Shown here: piece by piece, positions 34,927 through 52,216 of the stretch
Layout: every line of letters starts with the position of its first letter
Position numbering within the stretch: position 1 is the stretch's first letter
Source: an uncultured Candidatus Poseidoniales archaeon
GTDB taxonomy: Archaea > Thermoplasmatota > Poseidoniia > Poseidoniales > Thalassarchaeaceae
DNA: 56,636 nt
Assembly (NCBI GenBank): GCA_964003245.1
Contig: CAXFIU010000003.1
Coordinates: forward strand, 1 to 56,636
Direction: 5' to 3'
Notes under the pieces: model-generated
Told to the model about the DNA's origin: nothing
Seen by the model: the letters and a program-made list of their open reading frames with translations, nothing else
Databases searched by the model: none
Program-made: the position numbers and the translations under genes

Positions 34927-37900
34927 TTAATAATTAGGATCTTCTACCCATTCATTAGATTCTTCATCCCAAATCCACCCCTCGGTAGACTCTTCATCAG
35001 CAGTAGAATCTGACTCTGAATCTTCTTCATCAGTCGAAGAATCTTCTTCTATCTCAACAAAGAAATATACAAAAGCACCACCTAATAGAGACAATATTAC
35101 TATCGAGATGAGTGCAATCATTAACGTTGACATACCTTCATCAGGCACTCCTACGGAAATCTCGACACCACTAGAATAATCAGAACCAACATACCTGAAA
35201 TCAGGAGTGACTGGCCGATCATCAAATCGAGATGAGGGGATATCGAGAGACCAAGTCGAATCACTATTGACAATTGTACTGTTAGCAGGAACCTTATCAA
35301 TTAATGCAGTAACAGTCTTACCCGGAAGACCTATTCCTGAAAATGTAACACTCTCTCCATCTTTAACAACAGTGATATCTGGAACATTAATTTCAAAATT
35401 TATCCCAATTACGGTAAAAGTTACTGGCGACGATATTTCTTTAGAACCAAATGGGTCAGTGGCAACAAAGATTACATTTTCTAATGTCCATGAACTCATA
35501 TCAGAGTCATAGAAAAACATTGAAATTGGATCATATGTAGCAATTCCATCCTGGCCCACATTAATTACTAATGCGAAATTGTCATCTAAAGTTGCATCAG
35601 GACTAGAGTCTTCAAAGACAGATAATATTAGCTCTTGACCATTATCTATTTCCGTAAAGAATTGCCCCAAATCTATTTCTGCCTTAGTACATCTATCCTG
35701 TGATTGTGACTCTTTCTCACAATAAAGAGTGATTTCTTGTACCCAGCCATCAGAATTGAAAACAGGTTGATTGTTACCAGCATCAGAAGGGTTATCTGCA
35801 ATTATTGTAATTGTAGTCATATCGCTGTAATCATATCCATCGTATGATAAAACATCAATCTCATATTCAAAATCGTGTTGAAGTATTGTAGGATCCCAAG
35901 TAGTAGACCAAGCACCATTAGGTTCGAAATCAGAAACTGATTGCTGATGTACTATAATATCGCCATTGTAAATGTCCCTTACGGTGATATCTACTCTAGA
36001 AACTGAACCATCATTATCTCTTGCTACGCCCTCAATTGTATTATCAGAGACTGAAAGTCGCTCTCCATCCTGAGGAGAAAGTAGACTTACAAAAGGTGCT
36101 GAATTAGAGTTGTCAATAGTCAATGTCATAGTTACAGGTTGACATTCATCAATTACACTCAAACAAAAGTCAGAATCAGAAGCCCAGATAGTGAATGTAT
36201 AGTCAGATATAACTCTTGGTTGACCACTGAAATCCCATGTCCATGACCAATCAGCACCTCCAGAAGTAGGAGTAGTCCCTTCGAAATTAGGGCCACTAAT
36301 ATAGAAATAAATTTCTCCAACGTCTTGGCTACAAGCAATAGGGCAACCATATTGATCATATGCAGTGCCCTCGAATGTTACAGTTCCATCGGACCAAGTT
36401 GATCCGTCACTAGGTGAATTTACACTAATTACTGGTGGTGCTGCATTCAACTTAATTGTCCTTGTAATAATTGGACTGTAATCAATTCCATCAAACGACC
36501 TGAACTCGAATGTATAATCAGTTTCTTGATATCCTGACATATCGAATGAGTAATACCAAGAATTGAATGGATGATTGAAGCGAGTAACAGTGCCAGGTTC
36601 GGCTCCGCTATCGTCAACTGCCTGCCCAGCAGAAGCCCATTCGCTGGTGAAAGGGTCTCTAACTTCAATAGAATGAATATATCCTTTCTGATCCCACTGT
36701 GCTAATTCGTCTGTAGCATAGAATCCAGCCAACTGGCCATCATGCGCTGAACCAGTAAAGTTGACTATCTTTCTGAATGAGTGACCTGTTTCTTGAGTTA
36801 CAGAAATAGATGGCCCTGTATTTACTAAATTAATCACATCTTGGTATGTTGTATCTTGAATGACAAAGTCATCCCTATCATAACCAAAACCAAATTTGTA
36901 TGCAGTATAGTAATAACGAGAAAGTTCACGAGTTCCCGCACTATAGTCGCAATCATCATCATTATTATCAATAGTTAAATCGCCATCATTATCTATTCCA
37001 TCGGAGCATGAATCTTCATATTCATCATCTGCAAAACCATCAGGATTATCCCCTCCAGCAAGTCCTCGGAAATCAAGATGTGAATCTGAAGCCAAGGCAA
37101 ACCAGGGAGTATATCCATCATCATCTGTATATAATGAATATAGGTCATTACCTAGAGCATCTTCAATTAACACATTGGCATTTTCTACTTTCATGCCATC
37201 GACTAACGTTTGAAATCTAACCATTTCTGCTCTTCTCACTTGGACGGCATATTGAGTGGGTTGAGATTTAATAAATATCTTTGATGTATCGACATTTGAT
37301 AGATTGGCAAATGTAAAAACTGTAGAATTATTATCCATATTTACTGCAAGTGGGAAATTTCTAGGAGTTAAATTATCACAACTAGCACATTCAGAAATTG
37401 GAGTAGGGATAATTGCACCTTGGAATCCATTGGCAGGCCAAGCTTCTTGATCAGGCCAGTCCAATATCACTGGATATTCACCAGGAGGTGAACTAGGTAT
37501 GAACTCTGATTGAACAGTTACAGAAGATTTAGTAATATTGTAAGCTGTTTCAATACCATTCCAAGTATTTAATGAAAAGAAACCCAGTGAACCGTATTGT
37601 TGTGTATTTGCAAAACCACTATCATAATTTCTAATCACAGCGCCCGTTCCAGGAGTATTGAATAGATTTCTTTGAACATCCATCAGTCCACCGATTGCTC
37701 TGATTCCATCAGCATCTCCACCTAAACTAAATTCATTGTCATAAAGCGTTACTCCTGAACGGAATACACTGACTGCAGGACAGGTGTATTCACCTCCCCA
37801 ATACTTGAAACTAGAACAAGTACCCGGAGTATTTACACTGACTGTGTTATTTGTAAAATGAAGTCTAGATGCTGAAGGAGCAGGTCCAGATGATGATAAT

Positions 37901-39147
37901 TCCCCAACTTGAATAGGAGTTTTGGCGGTATCAATAATTGTATTATATTCAGCAATGACATCGAATGAACCAGTTAGCCAGAGTCCATTCCAACCACCGA
38001 TTGGCCCGATATCATTATTGTGAATGTAGGCCTTACTAGATTGCACAGTAATACCTGAACGATCTGCTACACCTGAAATCTCATTGTTATGTAATTCCGC
38101 ATCTCCTCCATCATAAACTGTAATTCCTGATCCTTCATCAGTATTGATCTCATTATATCCTACCTCAAACGTATATGCAACTCCCTGTATCGCTTTGACT
38201 CCATTGATATCAACGCCATTACAATTTACATTTATATCGGAATTAGTTAGTAAACCTGATGAGCTAACAAATGCAAAACCATAATCACCAGTATTCACCG
38301 TTGCATCATTAATCTCAATGAATGTTTCTTGGGCCCATAATGTTGGACGGCCCCCGTCGTTGTTTCCACAACCATTATCCGTACCAATAAAGAACGGAGA
38401 ATTCATTACAAGAGGAGTGACCTGTGTCCCAGAACCATATATCTGGACCGCGGAACCACCTACTCCACTTTTCCCATCGTTACCAGCAACATAAGTCCCT
38501 CCCTCGAATATTGGTTGTGCGAGATTAGTAGTTAAGACACTGCTAGTATTAATATTTTCAAATCTCATTTGAGTCAAAGTAGGGGATGCTCCATCAATAA
38601 CCATGGCTCCATATCTCCATCGGTTAATTGAATCAATGTAGTATGGAATACCCCAAGCATCATCTATTGTAATGTGTCTGAAACCTGTTTCTGACAAATC
38701 AATAGAGCTGCGAATTAATATTCCTTCGAAGCATGAGGCGTCTTCAACCTGTATTTCTTGGGATCCTTGCGTCATTCCTTTACATTCTCCAATCTCACTA
38801 GAATTGGAAGGATCGGTCCAACGCAGAGTAATTTTATTCGCGAGACTTGCATCTCCTGAAGATCCGCAAGACATGTCTCCTGCACAAAGATTTCCTCTTA
38901 CGTCGAGATAAGTCCCGTTAGGGAAAATTACAGTGGTCCCCGGTTGAATAATCAGCTTGGCACCTGATGCGATAGTAACGTCTCCAGTTAACTGATGTGT
39001 CCCAGACCATGTCTCCGAGGTAGTAATGGTTCCTGAAGTAGTTTCATTATTTGCCATCACAGGACTTGCAGGCCCTACTAAAGCGATTAACACACTAGAT
39101 AACATCAGAAATACTAGGAAGGAACTTCTTGCTCGGCGCTTGGACAT
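34927..39147 (-). CDS. Giant surface protein (1406 aa): signal peptide, right-handed parallel beta-helix (PbH1) region, Ig-like domains, TM anchor, acidic cytoplasmic tail
   Basis: Leader MSKRRARSSFLVFLMLSSVLIALVGPASPVMA. Beta-helix repeats such as GITVYDGGDAELHNNEISG and GITVQSSKAYIHNNDIG. Ig-like units VTFEGTAYDQYG and IEGVARDNDGSVSRVDITV. TM is LMIALISIVILSLLGGAFVYFFV, followed by the tail EIEEDSSTDEEDSESDSTADEESTEGWIWDEESNEWVEDPNY. Confidence 0.8.
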   Translation of the reverse strand: MSKRRARSSFLVFLMLSSVLIALVGPASPVMANNETTSGTITTSETWSGTHQLTGDVTIASGAKLIIQPGTTVIFPNGTYLDVRGNLCAGDMSCGSSGDASLANKITLRWTDPSNSSEIGECKGMTQGSQEIQVEDASCFEGILIRSSIDLSETGFRHITIDDAWGIPYYIDSINRWRYGAMVIDGASPTLTQMRFENINTSSVLTTNLAQPIFEGGTYVAGNDGKSGVGGSAVQIYGSGTQVTPLVMNSPFFIGTDNGCGNNDGGRPTLWAQETFIEINDATVNTGDYGFAFVSSSGLLTNSDINVNCNGVDINGVKAIQGVAYTFEVGYNEINTDEGSGITVYDGGDAELHNNEISGVADRSGITVQSSKAYIHNNDIGPIGGWNGLWLTGSFDVIAEYNTIIDTAKTPIQVGELSSSGPAPSASRLHFTNNTVSVNTPGTCSSFKYWGGEYTCPAVSVFRSGVTLYDNEFSLGGDADGIRAIGGLMDVQRNLFNTPGTGAVIRNYDSGFANTQQYGSLGFFSLNTWNGIETAYNITKSSVTVQSEFIPSSPPGEYPVILDWPDQEAWPANGFQGAIIPTPISECASCDNLTPRNFPLAVNMDNNSTVFTFANLSNVDTSKIFIKSQPTQYAVQVRRAEMVRFQTLVDGMKVENANVLIEDALGNDLYSLYTDDDGYTPWFALASDSHLDFRGLAGGDNPDGFADDEYEDSCSDGIDNDGDLTIDNNDDDCDYSAGTRELSRYYYTAYKFGFGYDRDDFVIQDTTYQDVINLVNTGPSISVTQETGHSFRKIVNFTGSAHDGQLAGFYATDELAQWDQKGYIHSIEVRDPFTSEWASAGQAVDDSGAEPGTVTRFNHPFNSWYYSFDMSGYQETDYTFEFRSFDGIDYSPIITRTIKLNAAPPVISVNSPSDGSTWSDGTVTFEGTAYDQYGCPIACSQDVGEIYFYISGPNFEGTTPTSGGADWSWTWDFSGQPRVISDYTFTIWASDSDFCLSVIDECQPVTMTLTIDNSNSAPFVSLLSPQDGERLSVSDNTIEGVARDNDGSVSRVDITVRDIYNGDIIVHQQSVSDFEPNGAWSTTWDPTILQHDFEYEIDVLSYDGYDYSDMTTITIIADNPSDAGNNQPVFNSDGWVQEITLYCEKESQSQDRCTKAEIDLGQFFTEIDNGQELILSVFEDSSPDATLDDNFALVINVGQDGIATYDPISMFFYDSDMSSWTLENVIFVATDPFGSKEISSPVTFTVIGINFEINVPDITVVKDGESVTFSGIGLPGKTVTALIDKVPANSTIVNSDSTWSLDIPSSRFDDRPVTPDFRYVGSDYSSGVEISVGVPDEGMSTLMIALISIVILSLLGGAFVYFFVEIEEDSSTDEEDSESDSTADEESTEGWIWDEESNEWVEDPNY

Positions 39148-39245: not shown

Positions 39246-40493
39246 TTATGCTACATTAAATAAAAAGGCAACTTCATTGGACCACTCTACTAAATCTAAA
39301 GAGCCATACCCAGAATGTGAATTATGAGTGTCGGATTCGAAGTTAGTTCTGTCAGAAGATGTTGCTAATGCCTGTTTAACAAGACTCATTTCATTCTCAT
39401 CTATGATTCCATCGGACCCTTCAATATCCTCTCCAAATTGTTGAATTATTAATGCTAAAGCACCTGATACGAAAACGGTAGAGTCGCTGGTTCCTGAAGA
39501 ATAAGCATATGGTGATGGCAATGCGCTTGATGCTGTTGAGAAAATATTAACACCCGGTGCTAAAACCTCCGGTTTCTGATTTGGAAAATCTCTTTCTTCT
39601 CCAGTTACTGGATCAATTGATGAACCAAAAGCACTGCTCCCCCATACATTTCCAGATTTGCTAATAGCTCCAACAGAAATTACCCCTGGTATACTAGAAG
39701 GTTGAGAAACATCATTTATTTCGAGATCAAGTCCCGTATTTCCTGCAGCAGCTACAACGAAAATACCGGCATCCAATGCTTCTTGAACAGCAGAGTTAGT
39801 TTGTGAACCAGCCCCCGAATTAAATTGAGAAGGCGAGCCTCCTAGACTCAATGAAATAATGTCAACTTTCTGAGTAATTCTACACCATCTAATAGCTTGT
39901 GCAACTCGATCTGTAGAACCTGAAGTGCCTTCTGAATCCAAAGCTAGAGCCACCGATAAGCCTACTTCTGGAGCAACTCCCTTAGAAGTACCATTAGATA
40001 TTAATATTCCAGTCATTAATGTCCCATGCGAACTTTCACCGACGTCTCTAACTGAATCATGATTGCCACTTACAAAATCTCTGAACCCTAACAGTTTTTG
40101 ATGAGAAAAATCAGGGTGTTCAATATCTACTCCTGTATCCACAATACATACATGTACTCCTTGACCAAAATATCCTTCTGATTGTAATTGCCTAATTCCA
40201 GAATCTTCGTAAGCCCATTCTGAATCTGGGAGTATTGGTATTAAGTATGAGTTAATCCAAGGCCAACCAGCGATTAAAAGGAGTGTGAATAACGAGAATA
40301 GAATTGCGCCATTAGGCCATAGATATTTTTTGATTGGCCCCATAGGCCAGCGCAACTGTTGTGCCTCTTCGTCACTTAGACCATAATCAGAACCTGGATA
40401 ACCAGGAGCTTTACTATCAATTGCAGTTAGAATACGGTGGTCATCTGGTTCTGGAAGCAAATCAAGATTCTCTAAAGACCTCAAAAGAATCAC
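39246..40493 (-). CDS. Membrane-anchored subtilisin-like serine peptidase (S8)
   Basis: VCIVDTGVDIEHPDF (Asp), SSHGTLMTG (His), AAAGNTG (oxyanion Asn), SGTSDSTVFVSGA (Ser). Single N-terminal TM/signal anchor AILFSLFTLLLIAGWPW. GTG 40493 opens the ORF; ATG 40343 (MGPIKKYLW...) is an alternative start. Confidence 0.85.
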   Translation of the reverse strand: MILLRSLENLDLLPEPDDHRILTAIDSKAPGYPGSDYGLSDEEAQQLRWPMGPIKKYLWPNGAILFSLFTLLLIAGWPWINSYLIPILPDSEWAYEDSGIRQLQSEGYFGQGVHVCIVDTGVDIEHPDFSHQKLLGFRDFVSGNHDSVRDVGESSHGTLMTGILISNGTSKGVAPEVGLSVALALDSEGTSGSTDRVAQAIRWCRITQKVDIISLSLGGSPSQFNSGAGSQTNSAVQEALDAGIFVVAAAGNTGLDLEINDVSQPSSIPGVISVGAISKSGNVWGSSAFGSSIDPVTGEERDFPNQKPEVLAPGVNIFSTASSALPSPYAYSSGTSDSTVFVSGALALIIQQFGEDIEGSDGIIDENEMSLVKQALATSSDRTNFESDTHNSHSGYGSLDLVEWSNEVAFLFNVA

Positions 40494-40562: not shown

Positions 40563-43500
40563 TCAGAACGGAGCGCCAGGGCGACGGGAACGTCCCTTGG
40601 TTAGATATAGCCCAATTAACACCAATGCAATGACTAAGATATATGCAATAATATCTGTATTCTCATCATCAGTAACAGCAGGAGATCGAACATCCACATT
40701 CATTACTCCTTGCTCCACTCCATCGCTAATATGCCATGAGTCATCGTCTATATTTTCTTCATTAAATCCTGTTGAGTTTATATCAAGCATGATGAAATAA
40801 GGCCCCACATCAATATCTGACAAATCAAACAAGAAACTAAATTGAGTAGAAGTTTTTGCAGAAATATCCATTATTGTTGTCGCAGTTACAGATGTAGGAG
40901 AAGCGCAAAGCGCATCCGCACATAGAATAGAATTGAGTTCTACATTTTTCGCATCGACCAATCCATCATTAGATAATGTAGCAATATATGTGATTTGTCC
41001 GCCTGCTTCTGGTTCTCCACCTCCATAGGCTTGTAAACTCTCAATCTTCAATACTGGTTCAGAACTCTGAATATTTATTTCAATAACTTCGTATGAGTTG
41101 TTGACTTTATCGGTCACAGAAACATAAATTGAGAATTCTTCATTGGAGGTTGCATCACTTGGAGATACTACTGTTACACTGTGAGAAGTACTAACGAAAC
41201 TACCAAGTGTGTGCGAAGTCGGACCTGTTCTACTCCATCCATCAGGTAACTCTGAGTCGTCAAACTCAAAATCATATTTTTCATCGCCATTTCCAGAATT
41301 TGTAAAATCAATCGGAATAATAATTGATTCACCAGGAGATACTCCATATGAATCAGCCATAGGATTTGTTAGTTCGAAGCCATGTATTTGAGGGACTCGA
41401 ACAATCAAATCATGTGTTGCTAGATAACCATCTAAAGTTGAGATACTGATTGTAATCTTATGGCCATCCTCGAAAGAATGTGCTACAGATTGGTTAGGTG
41501 GAATCACACGAACATTCAAACTGTTGAAATCAAGACTATTATCTAGACCGACTTCGAACTGTGTTGAACTAGTCCAGTTTCCAGAACCATTATTGAATTC
41601 AACTGTCCAATCTGAACTATCTGTTCCCGAAACAATACCTCCGACTGTAAATACATCAAACGATTCATGCCCTAGATAATCTACGCCAAGAGTGAAATCG
41701 ACTGGGATGAAACCATTCGTTTCATTTAGAACTAGTGAAACATCACCTAATGAACCGATGTAACTTTCATGCCCTGAAGTCCCATTCAAGGTATTAATCT
41801 CTATTTCATGATTTGAAACTCTGTTGAATAACAGATTCATAATTGGAGACTCTTGGCCAGAATAAACGTCAACACCTCTTCCTGCCGTGAATTCCATAAT
41901 CAATCCTCTCTGTTCTATGTCGAAGTTTCCTGAGAATTGGACATTACCATTAGGTAGCAAGAGATCTAGACTTCCATTTTCATCAACATTTTCTAACCAT
42001 TTCATACCAAATCCAATATCTATCAATACATTAGCGTCCAAAATTTCTCCTAGATTACGTGAGTTTCCATCATAATCTAACCATTCTGTTTGTACTCCAA
42101 GAGTACCTCCTCTAGTTAATTCCATATCTAAATTGTTTGAACTACCAGTTACATCAACATCCATAAGACCCATAATTACTAGATCTTGACTTGGCACACT
42201 GGCACGGACAATCCATAATCCTGGTTCCAATTCAGAAGACCAACTACCAGACCAACCAGTATCTTCATCAGCTACTATTTCGATAGTAACGGTATCTCTA
42301 ACTAGGCCCTCAGTAGGGATTAACATCAATACTATATCTTCGACAGGGATACTAGAAATACCAAGATCATAAGTAATGTTTCCATAAACATCAACTAAAC
42401 CTGCAATTAATTCTAGATCAACATCATTTGGAGAATCTGAAACCGCCACGTTCTCATCAATATTTTCAAAGCCATCATAAATTGTTTGGATTTGCCAACT
42501 TGTATTGTAAGGTACAAATAATTCCCATTCACCGGCTTCATCGGTTGAAATTGAATGTTCAATTGTATCTGATGTTGCTGTGAAAGTCATCTGGACTTCG
42601 GAAATACCTTCGCCAACGTTTGATACATTATTATCATTAAGATCCCAGAATACAGTACCAGCCAAGGCAACATATAGATTAGCTTGTAAATCAACATGAT
42701 TTTCGCCCACAACAATTGTAATTGGATGACTTTCTACAACCCATCTCTTACCATCATCAGTATAATTAAGAGAAACTATCCAATCACCTTCTACTATGTC
42801 AATAGTTGTAATTCCACTACTATTTGTTGCTTCAATACTAAATGAACCTAGATTATTAGCAGATTCCATTAATAGGCTAACTCCTGATAGAGGAGAATTA
42901 GAGGAATCTACAGAAACATTAAACGAAATTTCTGCGAGTTGACTAGTTGATAGCGCCAAACTATCATCAGAAATATCAGAATTAACAGATAGGAGAGTTC
43001 TCAGTCCTTCCCTAACATCGTTGTTTAACACCTCAGTAGTGGCTATCCAATCGCCTTGAGGGAAGAAATCAATAATGCTTCCATTGGAGTCAGTAGTTCT
43101 AGATAATACCCAACCATTTTCAACATTGGTGAATCTTACTAATTGTTCTGACAACTCACCTCCACTTTCATTGGTGAATGACATTTCTACTTTCCATTCA
43201 GGATCAAATCCGATGCTTCTTGAAATGTTGGTCGAGTCAATACCTACTTGGACATCTACTTCGCCGCTCATTATTCTAGTTCCAAATAAATCTCCTGAAG
43301 ATGGGTCAGCAATATCTACAGATATCCTATAAATTCCTGGTTCCACAGATACCTGTGCAACACCATTATCAATCCAATTATTTGAAGAAGAATTAACATG
43401 GTAATCAATACCATTAATTAAGGATAGAAGACTGAAATCATAAGTTACTGGAGTACCATTAGATACATTATTATCATCAGAATTATCGAGGAAGAAATCT

Positions 43501-46500
43501 AAAGTTAATACAGAATCTTCAGGGTAAATAATGACTTCAACGGTATTATTGTTATTATCTACATTTGTAATATTAGTTCCTGAATTGAGCTCGTCGGATA
43601 AAACTGTGAATTCCCATGTACCCTTAGGTAGAACCATCTCAAAGAAACCACCATCATTAGTTTCTGAACGCCATGTAACATCATATTCTTCACTTTGTGC
43701 GACTACTGTGACTGGCTCCCAACCACCTATCTCTGTATTGAATAAGTTGTTTTCTCGATTGACGCTTACTGCACCATCGATTGCTTGACCCGGCCGAGCA
43801 ACCATAGTAATCTTATCCATATTTTCATCGACTGTGAACTTTGTTCCATTTACTAGTTTCAGATCAACTCCTAATTGTGCAATTGCATCAACGTCAGAAC
43901 CTACTGGTAAAACAATACTGAATGTCCCATCAAATGAGGTTTCAACGGTCGTACTAAAATCATCCCAATAGAAAACGATAGGTACGAATTCCAGTATCTT
44001 ACTTGTATCTATGGTGTCTGATTCAATATTTTCATCATAATATAAAGTACCATTCACAGTCTGACTTGTATAGAAATTATATGTATCTGTAAAGTCGGAA
44101 TTGGCAAATACTTCAATTTCTTCCCATAATTGTTCGGTCTCGGATAAGGTATAATTTAAAATCCATGTACCAGGAGTTAATTCGACGTAATAATTGTTTG
44201 AAGAGTTATCATATAATGAATCCACTGGAGAACCTGAACCATTCTTCTGATTAAAGGTCAAATCAAGCCCCTCTACAGCTATATCAACACCATCTTCCAC
44301 TTTAATCAGTTGGAAAGTTAAATCTGTGGTTTGAGGTATTGGAGAAGGTAGAACAAATGATGATTCTTCGTTAGAGTCGACAGTGAACTCCAATATAGAT
44401 TCTGAGAAATTATCTGAATCTGTATCGATAGTTGCGATGTATGAACCTGGCATAATTGGGCCAAACTCAATCTTAGAACCTACTAATATGTCATTTTCAT
44501 AAGTTAACTGAGGGAAAATATGGCATGGCGCATATTTTACAACTTCACAGTCACCAATTTCCTCAACATTTGAAGAAGAATCTACTGATTCAAGAAGAAC
44601 ATGTGAATCGAGATAATTTCCTGAAACATCGATTAGTGTACCTGTTATCAAACCACCATTGATATCTATCTCCGTCGGAAGTACTGAAACCGCTTGAGTA
44701 ATTGTAAAACCATCATTAATTTCTATACGTGTATCGTCACTAAAAATAACTGCTACATCATAAGAACCAGGAATTGCATCAACCACATGGAACGTACCTG
44801 GTTGAACCATCACACCACTGAATATTCCCATTCCAGAGAATGTACCAGTTGCATTGATTGTACCATAATTTTCCAGACTACTATCTGATGTATCTGGAGA
44901 AAATACTCCTGAACCTATTAGAGTTGATTGAACTAGTTTCTGAGTAAATGATGCTACCCCATTAGCAGTGAAACGACCACTAGCATTAACAATTCCATCG
45001 AGAAGATAATTACCATCAGATTGTATGCATAAACTATTGTTCTCTGGCATTGTTTCATTTAATTCACAATTTACTATATCTGAGAGGTCATCATTGATCT
45101 CACCGTCAATAATTCCTTTACCTGCAAACTCTCCTTCACCAGTAACGCTATGATTATTGAATACAGTTTGAGTGTAGTTTCCAGTGAAATCAGATACTGT
45201 AGCTATAGATGATGTAATTACATTACCTTCTCCAGTAAAAGTAACTTCACCAGTCCCTTCAAATCTCAAATCATCGCCCATTATTGAACCATTTGATGTT
45301 GAAACCAAATATGGAGATGCTTCTATATTATCCCATGACGGAGAAAGTTCAATTGTAGCATCATCTAAAGAGTTACCAGAAAATATTTCTGAACCAGACC
45401 AAACTAGTCTTCCGATTGAAGATACGGGGCTAACTGAAATAGATACAGGAATTATTTCTTCTCCATTACTGTGACCATCTTCGCCTGAAATATTAACAGT
45501 GGTCTCTGAAAGCCAGGTTGAACCGGACACATTACCCAAAATACCTGTGATTGGATTCAGAGTACGGACTCCTGAAGTTTCACTCTCGAAAATATCTCCT
45601 AAAGTTTGGCCAACATTTGAAGTCATAATCTGAGTTCTAGCGGCTTCGAGATTCGATTCGCCATAGAATGCAGAAACACGAATTTTACCCGCAGGAGCTA
45701 AGAAACTGAAATCACCATTTGAATCTGCATCAGTAGTCCCTATTGGTATCCAATAAGTTCTTTGATCTCTATCTGTTACTTGACCATCAATTTCTACTTC
45801 ATCACCACTAAAAGCATCTCTTTCAATTAGAATTCTAGCATTAGGTACTGGACCTATTCCTTCTAATTCAACTGTACCTTCAATAGTAGCACCACTGTAG
45901 TATTTCATTACTTTAACTTGAGTATTAGCACTTCCAATACCCAAATTTTCACATTCAGGATCTAATTGATTACCATCTTCATCTGTCTCACAATCAGGAG
46001 CATACCAGTTCGAAAGAACAAGATGATTCATCATAGCACCAGGAAGAGGATAGGCGTTTTCCAAGTAAGAACCAGGCGCACCTGAGGTATAGAAGTGAGG
46101 AGCTGGTTGCTCTGCATCACCAGGTAGCCCTAAGGTAGAACTACCATATCCTACGTAAATTCTAGCAACCATTGTATCGAAGAATTCTGGTTGATGTTGA
46201 TAGTCAATATCAACCATTCTGATCATCTCATTAACATCTGTTAAGGCACCAGATTGTTGTCGAATTACATCGTTAAGATATTCATTTTCATATTCCTCAC
46301 CTGTTCGTGGAATAATTGGCCCATCTCCTCTTTGTGTCTGATAAACTGATGAAATATAGGTTTCAGTATCTAATCCAGATAACGAAGTAGGAGCATGGAA
46401 GATTCCTGTAGTTTGTCCTTGATGGTAACTATAATCCTCATAATACTGTCCTCCAAGAGGGTAAAGGCGATTATCTACAGCAAAATATCTAATCTCATTA

Positions 46501-49500
46501 TTCCTAGAAATTGTATCACCAAGAGGACCTTCGTAATTCTGGACTTCGTATACAAGTTCTGTAGACATATCATGATACAAATCATTAATCTCTTCAGAAT
46601 TGAAAATCTCTAGTAGTAGAGCACGGCTTAATGCCAACTTTGCATTAACTCTGTGTAACCCACTAGAAACATCATCAAAGTCCTCGATTAGATCAGGAGT
46701 ATATCTGTAACCCGAGATGTCATAATACTGGATTACTAATTCTCCCTTCCTTGCACCCTCTTTGTACCTATCTAATTCCGAAATTGAGTTCCTAGCGTCA
46801 TTGAAACTTGCAATAGCAGATTCCTCGTCAACTAAGTTATCAGAAATTACCTCGCCATCATCTAAGACTATCCATTCTTCGGATTCACTAGGAAGGCCAT
46901 TGGATTCCAAGGAGTAACCACGTAATAATTCATAATCACCATCTATTGCTACTACTGACATTGATCTATCAAGTACAATTTTTGAATCACCCATTGCTAG
47001 GCTCATGATTTTATCAAATTCACTCAATTGTGATTCATCCATGTACCCATCTAATAGTAAATTACTGAAGTCATTGGTGAATCCAGATTGATCATTGGAT
47101 CTTCTATCACCCTGTGCTAATGTGGTAATGAATAAAGAAACAGTATCTTCTTGACTAGCAGAAAGCAACATTGCTCCACTATTAGGAATTCCTGACTGGA
47201 AATTGTCTGCTACAGTAGGGTGGTCACCTTGAGCAAGTGCTTGGAAACCATAATCCCACCATGATACGAAAGCCGGGCGTTCTGAGAAACTATCTTCGGT
47301 ATCTTGTTCGGATAACCATTCATATGCTAAATTCCATGCTCCTGAATTAAAACCAGGTCCAAAAGTTCCCATGTACCACAAGTCGCCATTTGCATCATAA
47401 TTCTCACTATTTAGTAGTGAAAATCCTAATACTTCTTGCCTGAGGATATCAGGAGTTATATCATGAATTGTTTGATCTACATCCGAAGCAGATTGTTCGC
47501 CACGAGGTATACCTGAGTCAATACCATATGTCATGTGCTGAGAACAAACTAACATCAGAACAATCATCAAAGCAGGAACACCAGGATGTCTTCTTGAGGC
47601 AGTCCAATTAGCCCAAAATCTTGACCTAGGTGTAGATATTCCAGATTTTCTCCATTCTTTGAGGAACCCTGAGAAATTGGCATAATTCCACATCATAGCA
47701 ATTCCAATACCACCAACAACTGAAATTGCAGGAGTTGCATTGAAAATGAATCTTCCAGCAGACCAAGCCATGTAAATAGCAATTAAAACCCATAATCCTA
47801 GAAGTATATCGCTTTGTTTTTCTTTTCTTGCCCCTCTCCACAATAACATTGCAGCCACAAATATCGCGATTAACGAAACGATTGGTCCGTAAGAGGCGAA
47901 AAGTACACCTCTACTAGGAGCCTGAGCTTCCCCAATTGTCCCGAATATTTTATTCTTTGAAAAGTAGAATCCGCCAGTGAATAAAACATCCCATCCATCG
48001 TAAATATTTGCTTGTTGTAAGGCATATAATATAGCTAAAATTGAACCCATTAATACCGCAGTACTGCCGAGTACCAGTAGCCAAGGTTTATCTCTATAAG
48101 AAGAGGAAACCCAACCTAGAGCAAGGGTAAACCCAATAATGTAAAACATGGGTTGAAAACCACTAGGATCAAACAGTAGATTAAGCCCTGGCCAGCAGTA
48201 GAAAGGTAATGGAATGACAAAAGCGGTAAGCATCATTTGTAAAGATGCTGCAGTAATTGGAAGACTATCTCTACGACGGAACATATTGAAGAATATCTGG
48301 AATGCAAAAGCAATAAACAGAATTCCTGGCCCATATACGAAACCCTTCCATCCTAAAGCAACTACTGCGAAAGATACACCTGACAATGTAGCATTAGACA
48401 TTACAACAGGATTAGAAGACCACATTTGTCTTATTCCTGCTATGATGTAAAGTGGACTTAAACTTGGAGTCTGGAATAATCTCTCATTCTTCAGTTCATC
48501 CATAGCTTTGACCCAATAGTAAAATGCAATTGCTAGGAATAACATTGCGAATGCGTCGTGATCAGCTAATCCAAATGTCGAGTGCCCGATGTGACCGGGC
48601 ATTAATGCAATTAACCAAGCGGCAACAATACCGGCCATATTACTGTGTAGTTTCCTTGCAAGTCCTGCAATTGGTAATACAATTAATGCTCCGAAGATTG
48701 CTGGTAAAGAAGCTACACTCCACCAAACAGAGGTTTCCAAAGTCATTCCGGACAACCATGAGAGGAATAAACCTCCAAGTGCTAATGACCATGAGAAAAG
48801 AGGAGGTCTTGGATTAATTGCTACCATTGGATAAGCCCTATCTGCATCAATAATGAGGTGACTCTTTTGAAGTACAACATAATCTACAACTCTCTTCATG
48901 TACCAAGGATCAGAACCCCCAGACATATCCCATAATCCAGTCCCCGAAGCATTCATTGCAGGAAGAACGTTCCAACCTGTTCGAACGGCTAGACCAATTA
49001 TTAGCGCCGAACCAACCATGATTCCATAGGAGTGTTTATTCCACCATTTTCGGAAATCAGAATGTTCTCTACGAGGTGAGATGTCTCCAAACATACCACG
49101 TCCGGCTACCATCATTGCACCGATATTTAGCCAGAAAACAAGTAAAAACCATGTAAAGAGGCTGACATTATCATCACCGTTCAAAGTTGAAAGAGGCAAT
49201 TCATTTCCAATTTCTTCTAAGTGCGCTAAAGTATACATTAACCAGTTTAGACCTACAACTGTACCTAAAACATGCCACCTCTCAGAATTACAGAAAGAAA
49301 CGAAGAGAACAACTATTGATGCGAATATTGCCCAAACAGAACCTAGGTAATGATGATCATTATATGAATTGACATCATCTATGGTGCTTAACCAAACTAA
49401 TGGAATTAAATTAACTAAGAATATTATTCCAGCAGTTATCAAACCCGCTTTAGGCATAATTGAAGGAATATCGCGAAACCATGGGCCCTGCCCAGGATGT

Positions 49501-50081
49501 GCCTGCCTACCTCTAATAACTAAGGTAACAAGAACTCCGAGTATGATTGAAGCAATCCAGAATGCGAAGAACACTGAAGCGATTGATGCCCTAATTACAT
49601 CAATTAGTTCGTCAGGGCTACTACTCCATGAAGAATCATCCAAAGTGTATCGGGTAGCAAAAGAAATTGCTAGATGGAAACCAATTACCATCGATAGTAA
49701 AATTGAGGACTCCTCATTCCAGTTATTTTTATACAGGAAAAGAGTGAATACAAATACAAAAGCAAAAGTAAAACCTTCCATAGGAGTAATTGGAGTAAAC
49801 TCAGGAGCCAAAATCGACAAAATAATTGCTGCTAAAGAGCTAAGAATTATTTGGGAATCACCTTTTGAAAATTGGTCTACTACGATTCTACCGATAAACG
49901 CGGCAAAAGCAGCGATAACCGGTAGAATCAGGATTTCAGCATATCCGTCGTTCTCAATTCCACCATTAGCGACATAATCAGTCCCAAGGAAGAGTACCAT
50001 CAAAGTTGCTAGTACAGCAGGGACTGGGAGCAAATTCTTATTCGAAAAACCTCCCTTTGTCGCGTCATTATCATCGTTCAT
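40563..50081 (-). CDS. aglB: Giant (3172 aa) AglB/STT3-type oligosaccharyltransferase fused to an extra N-terminal polytopic module, about 2200 aa of beta-sandwich repeats and a C-terminal TM anchor
   Basis: Ordered STT3 motifs: SDPWYMKR (D391), GLADHDAF (D507/D509), TIGE (715-718, TIXE-type) and WWDYG (941-945). The downstream part has CarboxypepD_reg/Cna-B-like units (IEGTVELEGIGPVPNARILIE...NGDFSFLAPAGKIRVSA; LAGTVFWDLNDNNVSNVGEGISEVQMTF) and CARDB-like units. It ends IIAYILVIALVLIGLYLTKGRSRRPGAPF. GGTGAT lies 8 nt upstream of the ATG. Confidence 0.85.
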   Translation of the reverse strand: MNDDNDATKGGFSNKNLLPVPAVLATLMVLFLGTDYVANGGIENDGYAEILILPVIAAFAAFIGRIVVDQFSKGDSQIILSSLAAIILSILAPEFTPITPMEGFTFAFVFVFTLFLYKNNWNEESSILLSMVIGFHLAISFATRYTLDDSSWSSSPDELIDVIRASIASVFFAFWIASIILGVLVTLVIRGRQAHPGQGPWFRDIPSIMPKAGLITAGIIFLVNLIPLVWLSTIDDVNSYNDHHYLGSVWAIFASIVVLFVSFCNSERWHVLGTVVGLNWLMYTLAHLEEIGNELPLSTLNGDDNVSLFTWFLLVFWLNIGAMMVAGRGMFGDISPRREHSDFRKWWNKHSYGIMVGSALIIGLAVRTGWNVLPAMNASGTGLWDMSGGSDPWYMKRVVDYVVLQKSHLIIDADRAYPMVAINPRPPLFSWSLALGGLFLSWLSGMTLETSVWWSVASLPAIFGALIVLPIAGLARKLHSNMAGIVAAWLIALMPGHIGHSTFGLADHDAFAMLFLAIAFYYWVKAMDELKNERLFQTPSLSPLYIIAGIRQMWSSNPVVMSNATLSGVSFAVVALGWKGFVYGPGILFIAFAFQIFFNMFRRRDSLPITAASLQMMLTAFVIPLPFYCWPGLNLLFDPSGFQPMFYIIGFTLALGWVSSSYRDKPWLLVLGSTAVLMGSILAILYALQQANIYDGWDVLFTGGFYFSKNKIFGTIGEAQAPSRGVLFASYGPIVSLIAIFVAAMLLWRGARKEKQSDILLGLWVLIAIYMAWSAGRFIFNATPAISVVGGIGIAMMWNYANFSGFLKEWRKSGISTPRSRFWANWTASRRHPGVPALMIVLMLVCSQHMTYGIDSGIPRGEQSASDVDQTIHDITPDILRQEVLGFSLLNSENYDANGDLWYMGTFGPGFNSGAWNLAYEWLSEQDTEDSFSERPAFVSWWDYGFQALAQGDHPTVADNFQSGIPNSGAMLLSASQEDTVSLFITTLAQGDRRSNDQSGFTNDFSNLLLDGYMDESQLSEFDKIMSLAMGDSKIVLDRSMSVVAIDGDYELLRGYSLESNGLPSESEEWIVLDDGEVISDNLVDEESAIASFNDARNSISELDRYKEGARKGELVIQYYDISGYRYTPDLIEDFDDVSSGLHRVNAKLALSRALLLEIFNSEEINDLYHDMSTELVYEVQNYEGPLGDTISRNNEIRYFAVDNRLYPLGGQYYEDYSYHQGQTTGIFHAPTSLSGLDTETYISSVYQTQRGDGPIIPRTGEEYENEYLNDVIRQQSGALTDVNEMIRMVDIDYQHQPEFFDTMVARIYVGYGSSTLGLPGDAEQPAPHFYTSGAPGSYLENAYPLPGAMMNHLVLSNWYAPDCETDEDGNQLDPECENLGIGSANTQVKVMKYYSGATIEGTVELEGIGPVPNARILIERDAFSGDEVEIDGQVTDRDQRTYWIPIGTTDADSNGDFSFLAPAGKIRVSAFYGESNLEAARTQIMTSNVGQTLGDIFESETSGVRTLNPITGILGNVSGSTWLSETTVNISGEDGHSNGEEIIPVSISVSPVSSIGRLVWSGSEIFSGNSLDDATIELSPSWDNIEASPYLVSTSNGSIMGDDLRFEGTGEVTFTGEGNVITSSIATVSDFTGNYTQTVFNNHSVTGEGEFAGKGIIDGEINDDLSDIVNCELNETMPENNSLCIQSDGNYLLDGIVNASGRFTANGVASFTQKLVQSTLIGSGVFSPDTSDSSLENYGTINATGTFSGMGIFSGVMVQPGTFHVVDAIPGSYDVAVIFSDDTRIEINDGFTITQAVSVLPTEIDINGGLITGTLIDVSGNYLDSHVLLESVDSSSNVEEIGDCEVVKYAPCHIFPQLTYENDILVGSKIEFGPIMPGSYIATIDTDSDNFSESILEFTVDSNEESSFVLPSPIPQTTDLTFQLIKVEDGVDIAVEGLDLTFNQKNGSGSPVDSLYDNSSNNYYVELTPGTWILNYTLSETEQLWEEIEVFANSDFTDTYNFYTSQTVNGTLYYDENIESDTIDTSKILEFVPIVFYWDDFSTTVETSFDGTFSIVLPVGSDVDAIAQLGVDLKLVNGTKFTVDENMDKITMVARPGQAIDGAVSVNRENNLFNTEIGGWEPVTVVAQSEEYDVTWRSETNDGGFFEMVLPKGTWEFTVLSDELNSGTNITNVDNNNNTVEVIIYPEDSVLTLDFFLDNSDDNNVSNGTPVTYDFSLLSLINGIDYHVNSSSNNWIDNGVAQVSVEPGIYRISVDIADPSSGDLFGTRIMSGEVDVQVGIDSTNISRSIGFDPEWKVEMSFTNESGGELSEQLVRFTNVENGWVLSRTTDSNGSIIDFFPQGDWIATTEVLNNDVREGLRTLLSVNSDISDDSLALSTSQLAEISFNVSVDSSNSPLSGVSLLMESANNLGSFSIEATNSSGITTIDIVEGDWIVSLNYTDDGKRWVVESHPITIVVGENHVDLQANLYVALAGTVFWDLNDNNVSNVGEGISEVQMTFTATSDTIEHSISTDEAGEWELFVPYNTSWQIQTIYDGFENIDENVAVSDSPNDVDLELIAGLVDVYGNITYDLGISSIPVEDIVLMLIPTEGLVRDTVTIEIVADEDTGWSGSWSSELEPGLWIVRASVPSQDLVIMGLMDVDVTGSSNNLDMELTRGGTLGVQTEWLDYDGNSRNLGEILDANVLIDIGFGMKWLENVDENGSLDLLLPNGNVQFSGNFDIEQRGLIMEFTAGRGVDVYSGQESPIMNLLFNRVSNHEIEINTLNGTSGHESYIGSLGDVSLVLNETNGFIPVDFTLGVDYLGHESFDVFTVGGIVSGTDSSDWTVEFNNGSGNWTSSTQFEVGLDNSLDFNSLNVRVIPPNQSVAHSFEDGHKITISISTLDGYLATHDLIVRVPQIHGFELTNPMADSYGVSPGESIIIPIDFTNSGNGDEKYDFEFDDSELPDGWSRTGPTSHTLGSFVSTSHSVTVVSPSDATSNEEFSIYVSVTDKVNNSYEVIEINIQSSEPVLKIESLQAYGGGEPEAGGQITYIATLSNDGLVDAKNVELNSILCADALCASPTSVTATTIMDISAKTSTQFSFLFDLSDIDVGPYFIMLDINSTGFNEENIDDDSWHISDGVEQGVMNVDVRSPAVTDDENTDIIAYILVIALVLIGLYLTKGRSRRPGAPF
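47247..47261 (-). other. Codons for the WWDYG catalytic motif of the STT3/AglB domain
   Basis: The plus strand reads CCATAATCCCACCA here, reverse complement TGGTGGGATTATGG, in the frame of the 3172-codon ORF (residues 941-945). Confidence 0.9.
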
Positions 50082-50200: not shown

Positions 50201-51460
50201 TCAGAGCCCTCTATGAGCAATATCCTTCCTGAAATATGAACCTTCCAATTTTATGTTCTCAATCACTTCATATGCGGCTTCAACAGCGGTGACTAAATCA
50301 GGAGCTATTCCTGTTGCTGCAAGCACACGACCACCATTAGAAATTAATTCTCCCTCATTAGAAATTACTGCACCAGCATAATGAACCAGCGCACTGATTT
50401 CACCTTCCTCAATTATTATTTCCGAACCTTGTATGACTCTTCCAGTAATTGAATTAGAAGGATAGCCCTCCGAAGACAGAACAATAGTTGCCGATGAATA
50501 AGGAAATGTTGTAAAATCATATTCAGAAATTTTTCCATTGGCACAAGAAATTAATAATTCTCCTAAGTCACTAGAGATTAATGGAAGTGTGACTTGTGTT
50601 TCTGGATCGCCAAAACGAACATTGAATTCTACTACAAAAGGAGCACCGTTCTCATCAATCATTAATCCAACATATAAACAACCACGATAAGGTATATCCT
50701 GATTTCTAAGAAAATGATGCATCGGCTCAATAATTTCGGAAATCGCCCGCTGCTCTACAGCAGGAGTATAGACGGGTGCAGGTGCATAAGCACCCATTCC
50801 ACCAGTATTAGGACCATTATCACCATCCAGAAGACGTTTATGATCCTGACTCGCAGGAAGGCAAACATATCCAGATTCATCCATCACTACCAAAACCGAT
50901 GCTTCTTCACCATTTAGAAACTCTTCAAGAAGTACTTTGCCATCCAAAACTATTCCATCGCTCAGAGCATTATATGCCTCATTGCGATCAGTTGTAACAA
51001 CAACTCCTTTACCTCCAGCGAGAACATCTCTTTTCACAACCCAAGGAGGAGGAAAAGTATCTAATGATTCATTAATTCTATCAATATTCTCGATTAAAAT
51101 TAGTCCAGCAGTAGGTACTTTCATTGATTGCATAATTTCCTTTGCATACAATTTCGAACCTTCTAACCTAGCACCTTTTGAATTAGGTCCGAAACAAGGA
51201 ATTCCTTCTTCTGAAAGTCTGTCGGATAAACCTGCTACTAGAGGTGCTTCAGGACCTACGACTACCAAATCAATTTTCAAAACTTTAGCTAGATTAATAA
51301 TACCTTCAATATCCATTGAATCTACCTTATGATTGGTTCCAGAAATCGCTGTACCTGCATTACCAGGACAGGTGTGGACATGATTTACAGATTCACATTC
51401 CGAAAGACTGAGAGATAGTGCATGCTCTCTTCCACCACTACCTACAACAAGAACTTCCAT
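50201..51460 (-). CDS. purD: Phosphoribosylamine--glycine ligase
   Basis: MEVLVVGSGGREHAL N-terminus and ATP-grasp segments. The ORF opens at GTG 51469, but ATG 51460 is preceded by GGGTGAGGTG (plus-strand 51469..51478) at Shine-Dalgarno spacing. Confidence 0.95.
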   Translation of the reverse strand: MEVLVVGSGGREHALSLSLSECESVNHVHTCPGNAGTAISGTNHKVDSMDIEGIINLAKVLKIDLVVVGPEAPLVAGLSDRLSEEGIPCFGPNSKGARLEGSKLYAKEIMQSMKVPTAGLILIENIDRINESLDTFPPPWVVKRDVLAGGKGVVVTTDRNEAYNALSDGIVLDGKVLLEEFLNGEEASVLVVMDESGYVCLPASQDHKRLLDGDNGPNTGGMGAYAPAPVYTPAVEQRAISEIIEPMHHFLRNQDIPYRGCLYVGLMIDENGAPFVVEFNVRFGDPETQVTLPLISSDLGELLISCANGKISEYDFTTFPYSSATIVLSSEGYPSNSITGRVIQGSEIIIEEGEISALVHYAGAVISNEGELISNGGRVLAATGIAPDLVTAVEAAYEVIENIKLEGSYFRKDIAHRGL

Positions 51461-51526
51461 ACCCTGCACACCTCACCCGAGAGAGTATAGGAATTAATGA
51501 ATTCGAATGCCGAATTATAAAAAAAT

Positions 51527-52216
51527 CTAGTAAGGAACTTCTTTAAGTCCGAATTTATAGCCTATAATATTGAAAGAACGATGAATAACTGGAGTGATAA
51601 GTATAAGAAATACAATTTCTTCTACTAAATTAGGATGAGTTATAATTTGGCCATCGAATAGTAAGAAGGCTGTAACGAATATAGCGATTGCAAATGGAAC
51701 TGTATCAAGCAGCGGGGCTTCAGAGCTTTCATCGCCTTCTCTCTTCAACCCTCTTCTACGCTTTACAAATGAACCACACATATCTCCTATCATACAAGAA
51801 AAACCGAGTATAAAACCCATAGTAAAAGCAGCGAAAGATGAACCCATTTCTCCTCCGAACAACCAAAACCAGTCACTGGAATTCGCATAAATTAATGGAT
51901 CAATAAACGGTGCATCAGTCCCATTATTATTCCAAAGATTATGAGCAATGATAAATAATATTCCGCTAAAAATACCGCCTCCAATCAATCCATTCCAAGA
52001 TTTACCATCTCCGAGTATTCTATGGCCATCAGAGTGATTTTTGCCACCATCAATAATTAGAACCGGCATTCCTGTTTTATCGGGTATCCATTTTCCGAAT
52101 AACATTGCTCCAGTATTAGCCAGATAAGCAGAACCATACATCAATAAAACACATAGTACGTTTACAAAAAAAGAGCCAAAGCCATCTGTTTCGAAAGGAG
52201 TTGATGAGATATCCAC
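51527..52216 (-). CDS. carS: CDP-archaeol synthase (CarS/DUF46 family)
   Basis: Polytopic membrane protein with YLANTGAMLFGKW, IDGGK, LGDGKSWNGLIGG and GDMCGSFVKRRRGL...PLLDTVPF segments typical of CarS. GTG start. Confidence 0.75.
   Translation of the reverse strand: MDISSTPFETDGFGSFFVNVLCVLLMYGSAYLANTGAMLFGKWIPDKTGMPVLIIDGGKNHSDGHRILGDGKSWNGLIGGGIFSGILFIIAHNLWNNNGTDAPFIDPLIYANSSDWFWLFGGEMGSSFAAFTMGFILGFSCMIGDMCGSFVKRRRGLKREGDESSEAPLLDTVPFAIAIFVTAFLLFDGQIITHPNLVEEIVFLILITPVIHRSFNIIGYKFGLKEVPY

Follow-up and report, generated by a model that had tools for sequence, protein, structure and literature searches.

The stretch of DNA analysed here, referred to as the window, comprises 56,636 nucleotides from an uncultured Candidatus Poseidoniales archaeon of the family Thalassarchaeaceae (assembly GCA_964003245.1, contig CAXFIU010000003.1, positions 1 to 56,636). 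On its reverse strand, at 40563..50081, it carries one gene for a protein of 3172 aa (plus the stop codon), which is related to the AglB/STT3 oligosaccharyltransferases (OSTs) and exceeds every characterised AglB, PglB or STT3 about threefold in size; the chains of these enzymes in the PDB measure 696–935 aa, and AglB of Haloferax volcanii has about 1050 aa. The best overall explanation, and in our judgement probably the right one, is that this protein is the AglB of Marine Group IIb (MGIIb), which unites the enzyme in a single 3172-aa chain with a self-glycosylated structural ectodomain. The chain starts with a lineage-specific, predicted ten-helix domain (residues 1–340), continues with a complete STT3/AglB module (about 341–1400) and then runs through about 1750 further extracellular residues, comprising a beta-rich module and about 14 Ig-like domains, before it returns to the membrane. 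A first-pass annotation of the window had described a catalytic AglB fused in one chain to a giant beta-sandwich ectodomain that ends in a transmembrane anchor and a basic tail. This central proposal holds; what had escaped it are the ten-helix domain at the N-terminus and the invariant Ala-Pro-Phe (APF) at the C-terminus.

The catalytic part of the protein is recognized by two profile models. Pfam STT3 (PF02516) matches it with E=2e-15 (57.7 bits, cut-off 24.5), as well as 15 of 15 members of one orthologue alignment, and the NCBIfam model TIGR04154 (archaeo_STT3) matches residues 355–979 with E=1.7e-45, in an alignment that spans model positions 3–575 of 831. The STT3 identity proposed earlier is thereby borne out by profile hidden Markov models (HMMs). 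With 155.7 bits, the TIGR04154 score lies below the trusted cut-off of 450, and the protein thus appears related to this archaeosortase A system-associated AglB subfamily, not a member of it. The closest solved relative is AglB-L of Archaeoglobus fulgidus (3WAJ, E=8e-11), and together with the two profile matches the alignment to this structure delimits a membrane-embedded GT-C core at residues 341–860 (47502..49061, reverse strand, as are all parts of the gene), in which several helices are evident from hydropathy.

All motifs are found at the residues given in the first-pass annotation, and they follow each other in the same order as in AglB-L. The first acidic motif, SDPWYMKR (residues 390–397, 48891..48914), is assigned to external loop 1, and its D391 within GGSDPWYMKR aligns with GGNDPWY of 3WAJ. 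The second metal-binding motif is D507-H508-D509 within GLADHDAF (residues 504–511, 48549..48572), which aligns with NDHH of 3WAJ, so that a D-H-D in the giant protein stands against a D-H-H in AglB-L. TIGE (residues 715–718, 47928..47939) represents the TIXE motif of external loop 5 with E718, and the acceptor-binding motif WWDYG (residues 941–945, 47247..47261) is located at the start of the extracellular domain, where it aligns with the WWDYG of 3WAJ, 3VGP and 3VU0. At least 97% of 112 aligned sequences share the segments WDMxGGSDPWYMKR and DHD, as well as KNKIFGTIGEAQAP, which holds TIGE, and RPAFVSWWDYGF..HPTVADNFQ.GIP, which holds WWDYG. A conservation profile, calculated as mean pairwise column identity over the 43 orthologues kept at less than 80% identity, likewise identifies the core as the most conserved part of the protein (0.61–0.78). 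Past WWDYG, Q1018, E1021 and I1025 are invariant, and the alignment to solved C-terminal domains ends at residue 982.

Leaving aside the DK/MI motif and the thirteen-helix fold, every defining feature of AglB/STT3 proteins that can be tested in a sequence appears to be present, and the protein is very likely an active AglB. In line with a functional gene, aglB of an MGIIb genus-O1 metagenome-assembled genome (MAG) is transcribed in the sea and about fourfold enriched when the genus is active (PMC9723583). One could instead suppose an inactive pseudo-enzyme, whose STT3 part is only the membrane anchor of a surface protein, and point to the TIGR04154 score of 155.7 bits against the trusted 450 and to the DK/MI motif, which was not identified. 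We consider this very improbable: among the 112 sequences, which go down to 42% identity, at least 97% retain D391, D507-H-D509, E718 and WWDYG, no other part of the chain is as well conserved as the core, and the low score is explained by divergence from the haloarchaeal and methanogen subfamily.

In the comparison with A. fulgidus AglB-L (3WAJ/5GMY) and the TIGR04154 proteins, the GT-C core of the giant protein can be aligned from crystal residue 6 onwards, and the extracellular domain follows after the last core helix. However, AglB-L measures only about 870 aa and has a single, compact domain at its C-terminus, whereas the giant protein adds 340 residues, which form ten helices, at the front and, at the back, about 1750 residues and an anchor.

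Given such dimensions, a chimeric assembly join or a missed frameshift that merges a normal aglB with a surface-protein gene has to be considered. The gene is a single uninterrupted frame of 3172 codons, in which the only stop is the terminal one, and its GC content is even over the whole length. In a search of 5.8 billion protein clusters we found 440 relatives, and the following statements rest on the best 120 of these. Nearly all are 3122–3338 aa long and cover the query end to end, at identities down to about 42%. They include 111 full-length orthologues (3122–3338 aa) from ENA, JGI, NCBI, TARA and Logan assemblies, which answers the question, raised in the first-pass annotation, of whether orthologues of similar length exist. 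Furthermore, when a single genome was scanned for each GTDB species, 403 species-representative genomes proved to encode a relative. The best 80 of these 403 genomes, which were kept for analysis, are labelled as Poseidoniales/Thalassarchaeaceae or bear unspecific MAG names (Euryarchaeota, Methanobacteriota or Thermoplasmatota); the core of the window AglB is 99% identical to that of MAG UBA439. The Poseidoniales orthologues are collinear with the window protein and have the same gene neighbours.

On the level of individual loci, the open reading frame (ORF) is intact in 49 of the 54 cases in which the contig spans the gene; it encodes 3147–3346 aa, ends in APF and is found, among others, in the single-cell genomes AG-313-L18, AG-404-A19, AG-457-A01 and AG-422-I18 and in the long-read MAGs LRMED-021 and LRMED-022. 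The shorter ORFs in the other five loci are all we found in favour of an artefact, and each of them has an explanation: L018 meets a contig end and N runs, L037 is interrupted by N runs, L072 has one in-frame stop, L074 has one frameshift, and L021 is an assembly with many frameshifts. In at least three of them (L037, L072 and L074), the frame resumes and reaches the common APF end. With 49 intact loci and all 111 database orthologues intact, single-cell and long-read sequences included, and with a uniform GC content over the gene, an artefact is exceedingly improbable; a stop, frameshift or contig join that splits the frame is excluded by the orthologues and the intact loci. The giant ORF and its architecture are almost certainly real. 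We also noted an antisense ORF of 202 aa (49369-49977, forward strand) within the part of aglB that codes for the N-terminal domain. Of the two frames, the orthologues conserve that of aglB, and the antisense ORF is therefore most likely spurious.

The N-terminal extension (residues 1–340, 49062..50081) is delimited by the alignment to AglB-L. Residue 6 of 3WAJ pairs with residue 341 of the query, and the preceding 340 residues are therefore additional; D391 consequently lies about 340 residues further into the chain than its equivalent in any characterised AglB. AlphaFold, supplied with an alignment of 46 sequences, models this part with good confidence as ten long helices (predicted local distance difference test, pLDDT, 87.5; predicted template modelling score, pTM, 0.84). 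When the sequence is compared to the model, basic residues gather in the even-numbered loops and after helix 10, a distribution that places the beginning and the end of the predicted domain on the cytoplasmic side and would preserve the topology of STT3.

We detected no relatives of this domain outside of the giant AglB family. A Foldseek search against the PDB gave a best E-value of 0.5 with TM-scores of at most 0.25, and no Pfam or NCBIfam model matches residues 1–340. An HMM of the domain, run on about 400 retrieved proteins, matches only members of the giant AglB family, and it finds nothing in the corresponding locus of Methanomassiliicoccus luminyensis, which we describe below. Its origin as a duplicate of the GT-C membrane module was considered and rejected (hhalign probability of 0.2% against residues 341–840), and there is no repeat between the two halves. 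The ten-helix domain is an element without known counterpart, and, among the retrieved proteins, its sequence appears only in Poseidoniales. We further observed that the first acidic motif of a eukaryotic STT3 of 935 aa (PDB chain 8i9p_Lh) aligns at residue 244 and not at about 47; N-terminally extended STT3 proteins therefore occur elsewhere.

Behind the core, the chain can be divided into three parts. The first (residues 861–1400, 45882..47501) is the extracellular peripheral region of AglB, a mixed alpha/beta structure. It includes a weak AglB_core-like match (residues 935–979), matches to 3VGP and 3VU0 (915–982), a poorly conserved insertion (about 1035–1190) and a conserved stretch (about 1294–1396), for which the model is of low confidence and which AlphaFold fails to place without the core. 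The second part is a conserved beta-rich module (residues 1401–1760, 44802..45881), in which a prealbumin-like unit is followed by very long strands of up to 42 residues, repeated F-x-G-x-G motifs and invariant Cys pairs; it is modelled with a pLDDT of 80–90, has invariant Gly, Phe and Cys columns and reaches a column identity of 0.50–0.66. The third and by far largest part is a tandem array of beta-sandwich domains (residues 1761–3130, 40692..44801) of the CarboxypepD_reg/CnaB/transthyretin-like type, with DUF11/CARDB-like units near its end. We estimate that it consists of roughly 14 units of about 95 aa each. A profile self-comparison of the array reveals offsets of about 90, 190 and 470 residues, and jackhmmer relates the units at 2009–2094, 2101–2185, 2296–2381, 2470–2565 and 2671–2717 to each other. 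The first-pass annotation had taken all of the roughly 2200 residues after WWDYG for such repeats, and this stands for about 1760–3130, but neither for the alpha/beta region at about 860–1400 nor for the separate module at 1400–1760. Its assignment of the units to CarboxypepD_reg/Cna-B is supported by the self-repeats, by the pilin-like folds described below and by CarboxypepD_reg matches, with E-values down to 1.5e-15, in 11 of 14 orthologues, but these matches stay sub-threshold in the window protein itself (30.8 versus 32.3 bits), where DUF11 is weak, too. Orthologues occasionally match DUF11, CARDB, NPCBM_assoc, Big_1, SpaA and SdrD_B as well.

At its C-terminus, the chain returns to the membrane with a predicted transmembrane helix (residues 3140–3161, 40599..40664), within which the segment 3142–3160 has a Kyte-Doolittle hydropathy of 2.44, and it ends in a basic, presumably cytoplasmic tail, KGRSRRPGAPF (residues 3162–3172, 40566..40598); residues 3158–3172 read LYLTKGRSRRPGAPF. 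All orthologues have the terminal helix and the basic tail. The tail follows the pattern [K/R]xxxRRxxAPF, whose final APF is invariant in all complete MGIIb orthologues; in a divergent MGII (Marine Group II) clade, the tails end in RF or PF. With membrane helices at the front and a terminal helix at the back, the chain is thus fixed in the membrane at both ends. As a shared sorting signal, the APF tail was considered and rejected: none of the other large ORFs in the window ends in APF, the window protein matches no NCBIfam sorting-signal model, and the order of a PGF-CTERM/archaeosortase signal is not found. Here the helix comes first, then the basic cluster and then PGAPF at the extreme end, which is the reverse of the PGF-CTERM order. 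To our knowledge, no recognition partner of such a tail has been described.

The fold of the ectodomain suggests comparison with surface fibres. An AlphaFold model of residues 856–2055 finds, in Foldseek, the CnaB-type pilin and adhesin arrays of Gram-positive bacteria (TIE of Bacillus anthracis, BcpA, RrgB and SpaA; E=2e-9 to 1e-6) as well as SlaB, which forms the stalk of the Sulfolobus S-layer (probability 0.99), and these are the closest folds to the modelled array. However, pilins, adhesins and SlaB are non-enzymes, namely secreted subunits that are linked by sortase or form lattices, whereas the giant AglB is held in the membrane at both ends. The fold matches nonetheless speak for a reading in which an adhesin or particle-binding fibre is fused to AglB, as does the fact that Marine Group II archaea are often particle-associated heterotrophs. 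The pattern of variation speaks against it. Adhesins typically vary in repeat number and length, yet in the 43 orthologues no variation in repeat number is seen, gaps do not exceed 10% in any 100-residue bin of the ectodomain, whose column identity is 0.34–0.66, and the MGII proteins keep to 3151–3292 aa (5th to 95th percentile). Moreover, with both ends in the membrane there is no free distal tip domain, our Pfam searches with the window protein and its orthologues detected no lectin or carbohydrate-binding family, and the neighbouring giant proteins are not rich in sequons. We therefore think an adhesin improbable. The first-pass annotation had suggested an adhesin-like structure or a substrate-capture array, and both fit poorly with an ectodomain that conserves its length, has almost no indels and is 34–66% identical between orthologues. 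The length constraint, the collinearity and the double anchoring instead favour a structural element of defined size over a variable adhesin.

The ectodomain also appears to be a substrate of the enzyme. Measured against composition-preserving shuffles, N-X-S/T sequons occur in the ectodomains of the 43 orthologues at on average 1.9 times the expected frequency (z up to 9.7). Of the sequon positions, 27 recur in at least 50% of the orthologues and nine in at least 80%. Because of this enrichment and positional conservation, we infer that AglB would glycosylate its own ectodomain heavily. A further sequon lies within the STT3 core (N781, N-A-T in RFIFNATPA, nt about 47739-47741) and is found in 43 of 43 orthologues; it may be a site at which the enzyme glycosylates itself and which is conserved for this reason, or else a conserved motif that resembles a sequon by coincidence. 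The giant secreted proteins encoded nearby, which had been put forward as sequon-rich substrates, are not enriched (z −1.8 to +1.2), except for a single ORF of 687 aa (54556-56619, reverse strand) with 14 sequons versus 6.1 expected (z=3.6). As dedicated substrates of AglB, these neighbours are not supported by their z-values, and the enriched protein is the AglB ectodomain itself. The 687-aa ORF has no obvious signal peptide at its called start. It shares bacterial TSP3 repeats (thrombospondin type 3, calcium-binding) with an ORF of 1906 aa (25615-31335, reverse strand), the N-terminus of which resembles a signal peptide.

To see how far the architecture extends, we searched 1.84 billion cluster representatives with the core alone (HMMER), obtained 765 matches, 231 of them below 1e-30, and inspected the best 150. 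In 92 of these 150, the core, a CarboxypepD_reg-type array, the terminal helix and the basic tail are combined in a single chain that measures 2000 aa or more. Ten of the best 150 reach at least 3000 aa and possess both the N-terminal domain and the C-terminal anchor; all ten come from Marine Group II, some of them from the divergent clade with about 50–55% identity. A larger group has 2000–2999 aa, and in 82 of its 84 members the terminal helix and basic tail are present. In these 82, the core starts within the first ~150 residues, and they therefore lack the N-terminal domain. The remainder of the 150 is shorter, and many of those that we looked up are fragments. The proteins of 2000–2999 aa are collinear with the query at the core, in segment 1194–1480, the counterpart of which follows directly after the core in these shorter proteins, and in some repeat units, and they rarely align in the module at about 1401–1760. 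Their source names are Methanomassiliicoccales, ‘Thermoplasmata archaeon’, Thermoplasmatota MAGs and the cultured M. luminyensis, and the Methanomassiliicoccales-type proteins have a median length of 2170 aa with an interquartile range of 2165–2190. The M. luminyensis protein (P0362, 2173 aa) is labelled ‘carboxypeptidase regulatory-like domain-containing protein’ and matches, in Pfam, STT3, six CarboxypepD_reg units, SdrD_B and a NOMO-type transthyretin domain, whereas a MAG copy (P0347, 2169 aa) is labelled AglB at NCBI. Two fragments from Methanomethylophilaceae and Thermoplasmata MAGs (P0158 and P0168) are annotated as ‘peptide transporter’, and other members of the family as ‘glycosyltransferase family 39 protein’.

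The giant AglB of Methanomassiliicoccales and other Thermoplasmata (about 2100–2775 aa) thus shares with the window protein an STT3 core at 28–39% identity, a counterpart of segment 1194–1480, a CarboxypepD_reg-type array, the C-terminal helix with its basic tail, a narrow length range and a nearby purD. It differs in that it lacks the ten-helix domain and the APF end, is about 1000 residues shorter, can rarely be aligned to residues 1500–1760 and has a CARDB protein downstream in place of a subtilase. Judged from these sequences, C-terminally anchored giant AglB proteins appear to be widespread in Thermoplasmatota; they seem to be the standard AglB of the order Poseidoniales, while Methanomassiliicoccales and other Thermoplasmata appear to have a form of about 2170 aa as their standard. 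The ten-helix domain, about 1000 residues of ectodomain and the APF tail would then be additions of Marine Group II, and the form of about 2170 aa without the N-terminal domain would represent the ancestral version. We found no description of a giant AglB in the literature, although a prior mention cannot be fully excluded. The sequences are already public under inconsistent names, and the architecture itself is apparently undescribed in papers. This agrees with the first-pass annotation, which knew of no such OST; the architecture is nevertheless not a singular case, but occurs throughout the Poseidoniales and, in a shorter form, in other Thermoplasmata.

Extracellular beta-rich domains next to STT3 are also known from eukaryotes, where the OST has separate single-pass subunits with lumenal beta-rich domains (ribophorins, OST48/Wbp1 and Swp1). 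The resemblance to ribophorin I/II, OST48/Wbp1 and Swp1 is one of analogy only and concerns the beta-rich domains beside STT3 and the C-terminal helices; in eukaryotes the subunits are separate, whereas here an array that is an order of magnitude larger is supplied in cis. Neither profile nor Foldseek comparisons detected a sequence or fold relationship with ribophorin, OST48/Wbp1 or Swp1. A similar caveat applies to NOMO, a subunit of the BOS complex, which is likewise a string of CarboxypepD_reg/transthyretin-like domains with one C-terminal membrane helix, but has no enzyme fused to it. NOMO-type Pfam models match the Methanomassiliicoccales homologues; on the level of the proteins themselves, NOMO2 (9c7v_B) matches P0362 with E=0.006 only, and the window protein has no NOMO match in Pfam at E-values up to 0.1. 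We therefore rejected a specific kinship with NOMO and take the marginal match as generic similarity between transthyretin folds.

By analogy with the eukaryotic subunits, the ectodomain could be a substrate-handling array that turns the protein into a kind of single-chain OST complex, presenting unfolded acceptors or docking at the Sec translocon. Several features are compatible with this: the ectodomain is best conserved nearest to the core (residues 1200–1800, 0.50–0.66), a conserved segment cannot be modelled without the core, a 1:1 ratio to the enzyme is natural for an accessory module, and the C-terminal helix could pack on the membrane core. In addition, a thioredoxin with a weak match to OST3_OST6 is encoded two genes downstream in M. 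luminyensis. On the other hand, about 1750 residues in at least ~14 domains are far beyond the known accessory subunits, matches in sequence or fold to ribophorin, OST48 and Swp1 are lacking, and a local chaperone role does not explain why the length of the distal array is conserved as well. On balance, we regard such a function as unlikely.

The gene neighbourhood was compared by tblastn in 84 loci, many of which are cut short by contig ends. Upstream of aglB lie the housekeeping genes purD (GARS) and carS (CDP-archaeol synthase; together 50201..52216, reverse strand), which are found in 76 and 66 of the 84 loci, respectively. Only 69 nt downstream and on the same strand follows a subtilase of family S8 (415 aa, 39246..40493; Peptidase_S8, E=2e-39) that has a single membrane helix near its N-terminus (about residues 57–82 are hydrophobic), found in 58 loci. 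It resembles mycosins, with a score below the cut-off. The next gene encodes a secreted beta-helix/Big_7 protein of 1406 aa (34927..39147, reverse strand), a conserved neighbour seen in 57 loci that makes up, with the subtilase, a small cluster for surface proteins, and the third gene after aglB encodes a STAND NTPase with HTH and TPR domains (32330-34858, reverse strand). The order carS-purD-aglB-subtilase is conserved across Poseidoniales, and in the MGII clade with about 55% identity (L083) the gene order is kept including the STAND-TPR gene. The subtilase, the large protein and the STAND gene may form an envelope-related gene cluster. In M. luminyensis (L081, CAJE01000020.1, 14519-15760), by contrast with the subtilase of Poseidoniales, aglB is followed by a gene for a CARDB protein of 245 aa, the start of which overlaps the aglB stop, and then by one for a thioredoxin of 107 aa with the weak OST3_OST6 match; purD is nearby. 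OST3 and OST6 are thioredoxin-like subunits of the eukaryotic OST, and the thioredoxin may provide a lead on accessory factors.

The position of the subtilase evokes a polyprotein that is cut after export, for example by this very protease, into a normal AglB and an anchored surface glycoprotein. The subtilase is membrane-anchored, begins only 69 nt after aglB and keeps this place throughout the order, the low-confidence stretch at about 1294–1396 separates the AglB-like from the beta-rich part, and the array matches SlaB (Foldseek probability 0.99). Yet the putative linker is highly conserved (0.64), unlike a simple cleavage spacer, the M. luminyensis version has a CARDB protein and no adjacent subtilase, and synthesis at a 1:1 ratio would over-produce the enzyme. 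We also know of no precedent for an OST-S-layer polyprotein, and hold such processing to be quite improbable.

We therefore return to the reading given at the outset, an AglB in one chain with a self-glycosylated structural ectodomain. In this family, dolichol-phosphate-linked glycans are moved to N-X-S/T sequons of proteins that emerge at the outer face of the membrane; the giant AglB would do the same and count its own, heavily N-glycosylated ectodomain among its substrates. The extension would then form an arch or stalk of fixed length and, itself glycosylated, be part of the glycoprotein coat of cells that have no conventional wall or S-layer, and the arch would keep the glycosylating enzyme within the layer that is being decorated. 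If its domains, about 14 or more, measure about 4 nm each and the chain is tied down at both ends, we would expect a layer with a height of a few tens of nanometres. For cultured relatives, the absence of a wall or S-layer and a dependence on a glycocalyx or on membrane glycoproteins have been reported, and a second membrane may be present in M. luminyensis (PMC10673518, PMC4243693).

Several points weigh against this reading. The DK/MI motif could not be assigned. The model of residues 856–2055 is only of moderate global confidence (pTM 0.49), and any domain arrangement read from it would be provisional. The sequon enrichment is modest in the window protein itself, with 37 sequons versus 27.4 expected (p=0.027). 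The notion of a ‘wall-less’ Marine Group II would be an extrapolation from relatives. Lastly, it would be odd for a major component of the coat to be fused 1:1 to an enzyme; this ratio weighs against a bulk S-layer and is the main reason why we keep the accessory, substrate-handling function under consideration. For the ectodomain, a role as scaffold or coat is accordingly no more than a tentative assignment, suggested by its sequence features. A more far-reaching version, which we consider doubtful, is that the giant AglB would be a self-contained envelope-building device of wall-less Thermoplasmatota, with the arch as a ruler for the thickness of the coat or pseudo-periplasm or as a bridge to a second membrane, and that in MGII the ten-helix domain would add the handling or flipping of lipid-linked glycans, or a docking site for the C-terminal helix and APF.

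If true, enzyme and envelope structure would be one molecule, a cis-encoded counterpart of the multi-subunit eukaryotic OST. Independent of this, the architectural range of the universal STT3/AglB/PglB family is widened about threefold. Since its members are filed under names as different as hypothetical protein, carboxypeptidase regulatory-like, GT39, peptide transporter and STT3 domain-containing protein, surveys of N-glycosylation can miss or misjudge the family. With a homolog in the cultured M. luminyensis, the integrity of the chain, its self-glycosylation and the position of the array are accessible to experiments. In the surface ocean, few archaea are more abundant than those of Marine Group II, which have never been cultured; a conserved AglB of about 3170 aa would provide a molecular handle on how they and their wall-less relatives build their surface.

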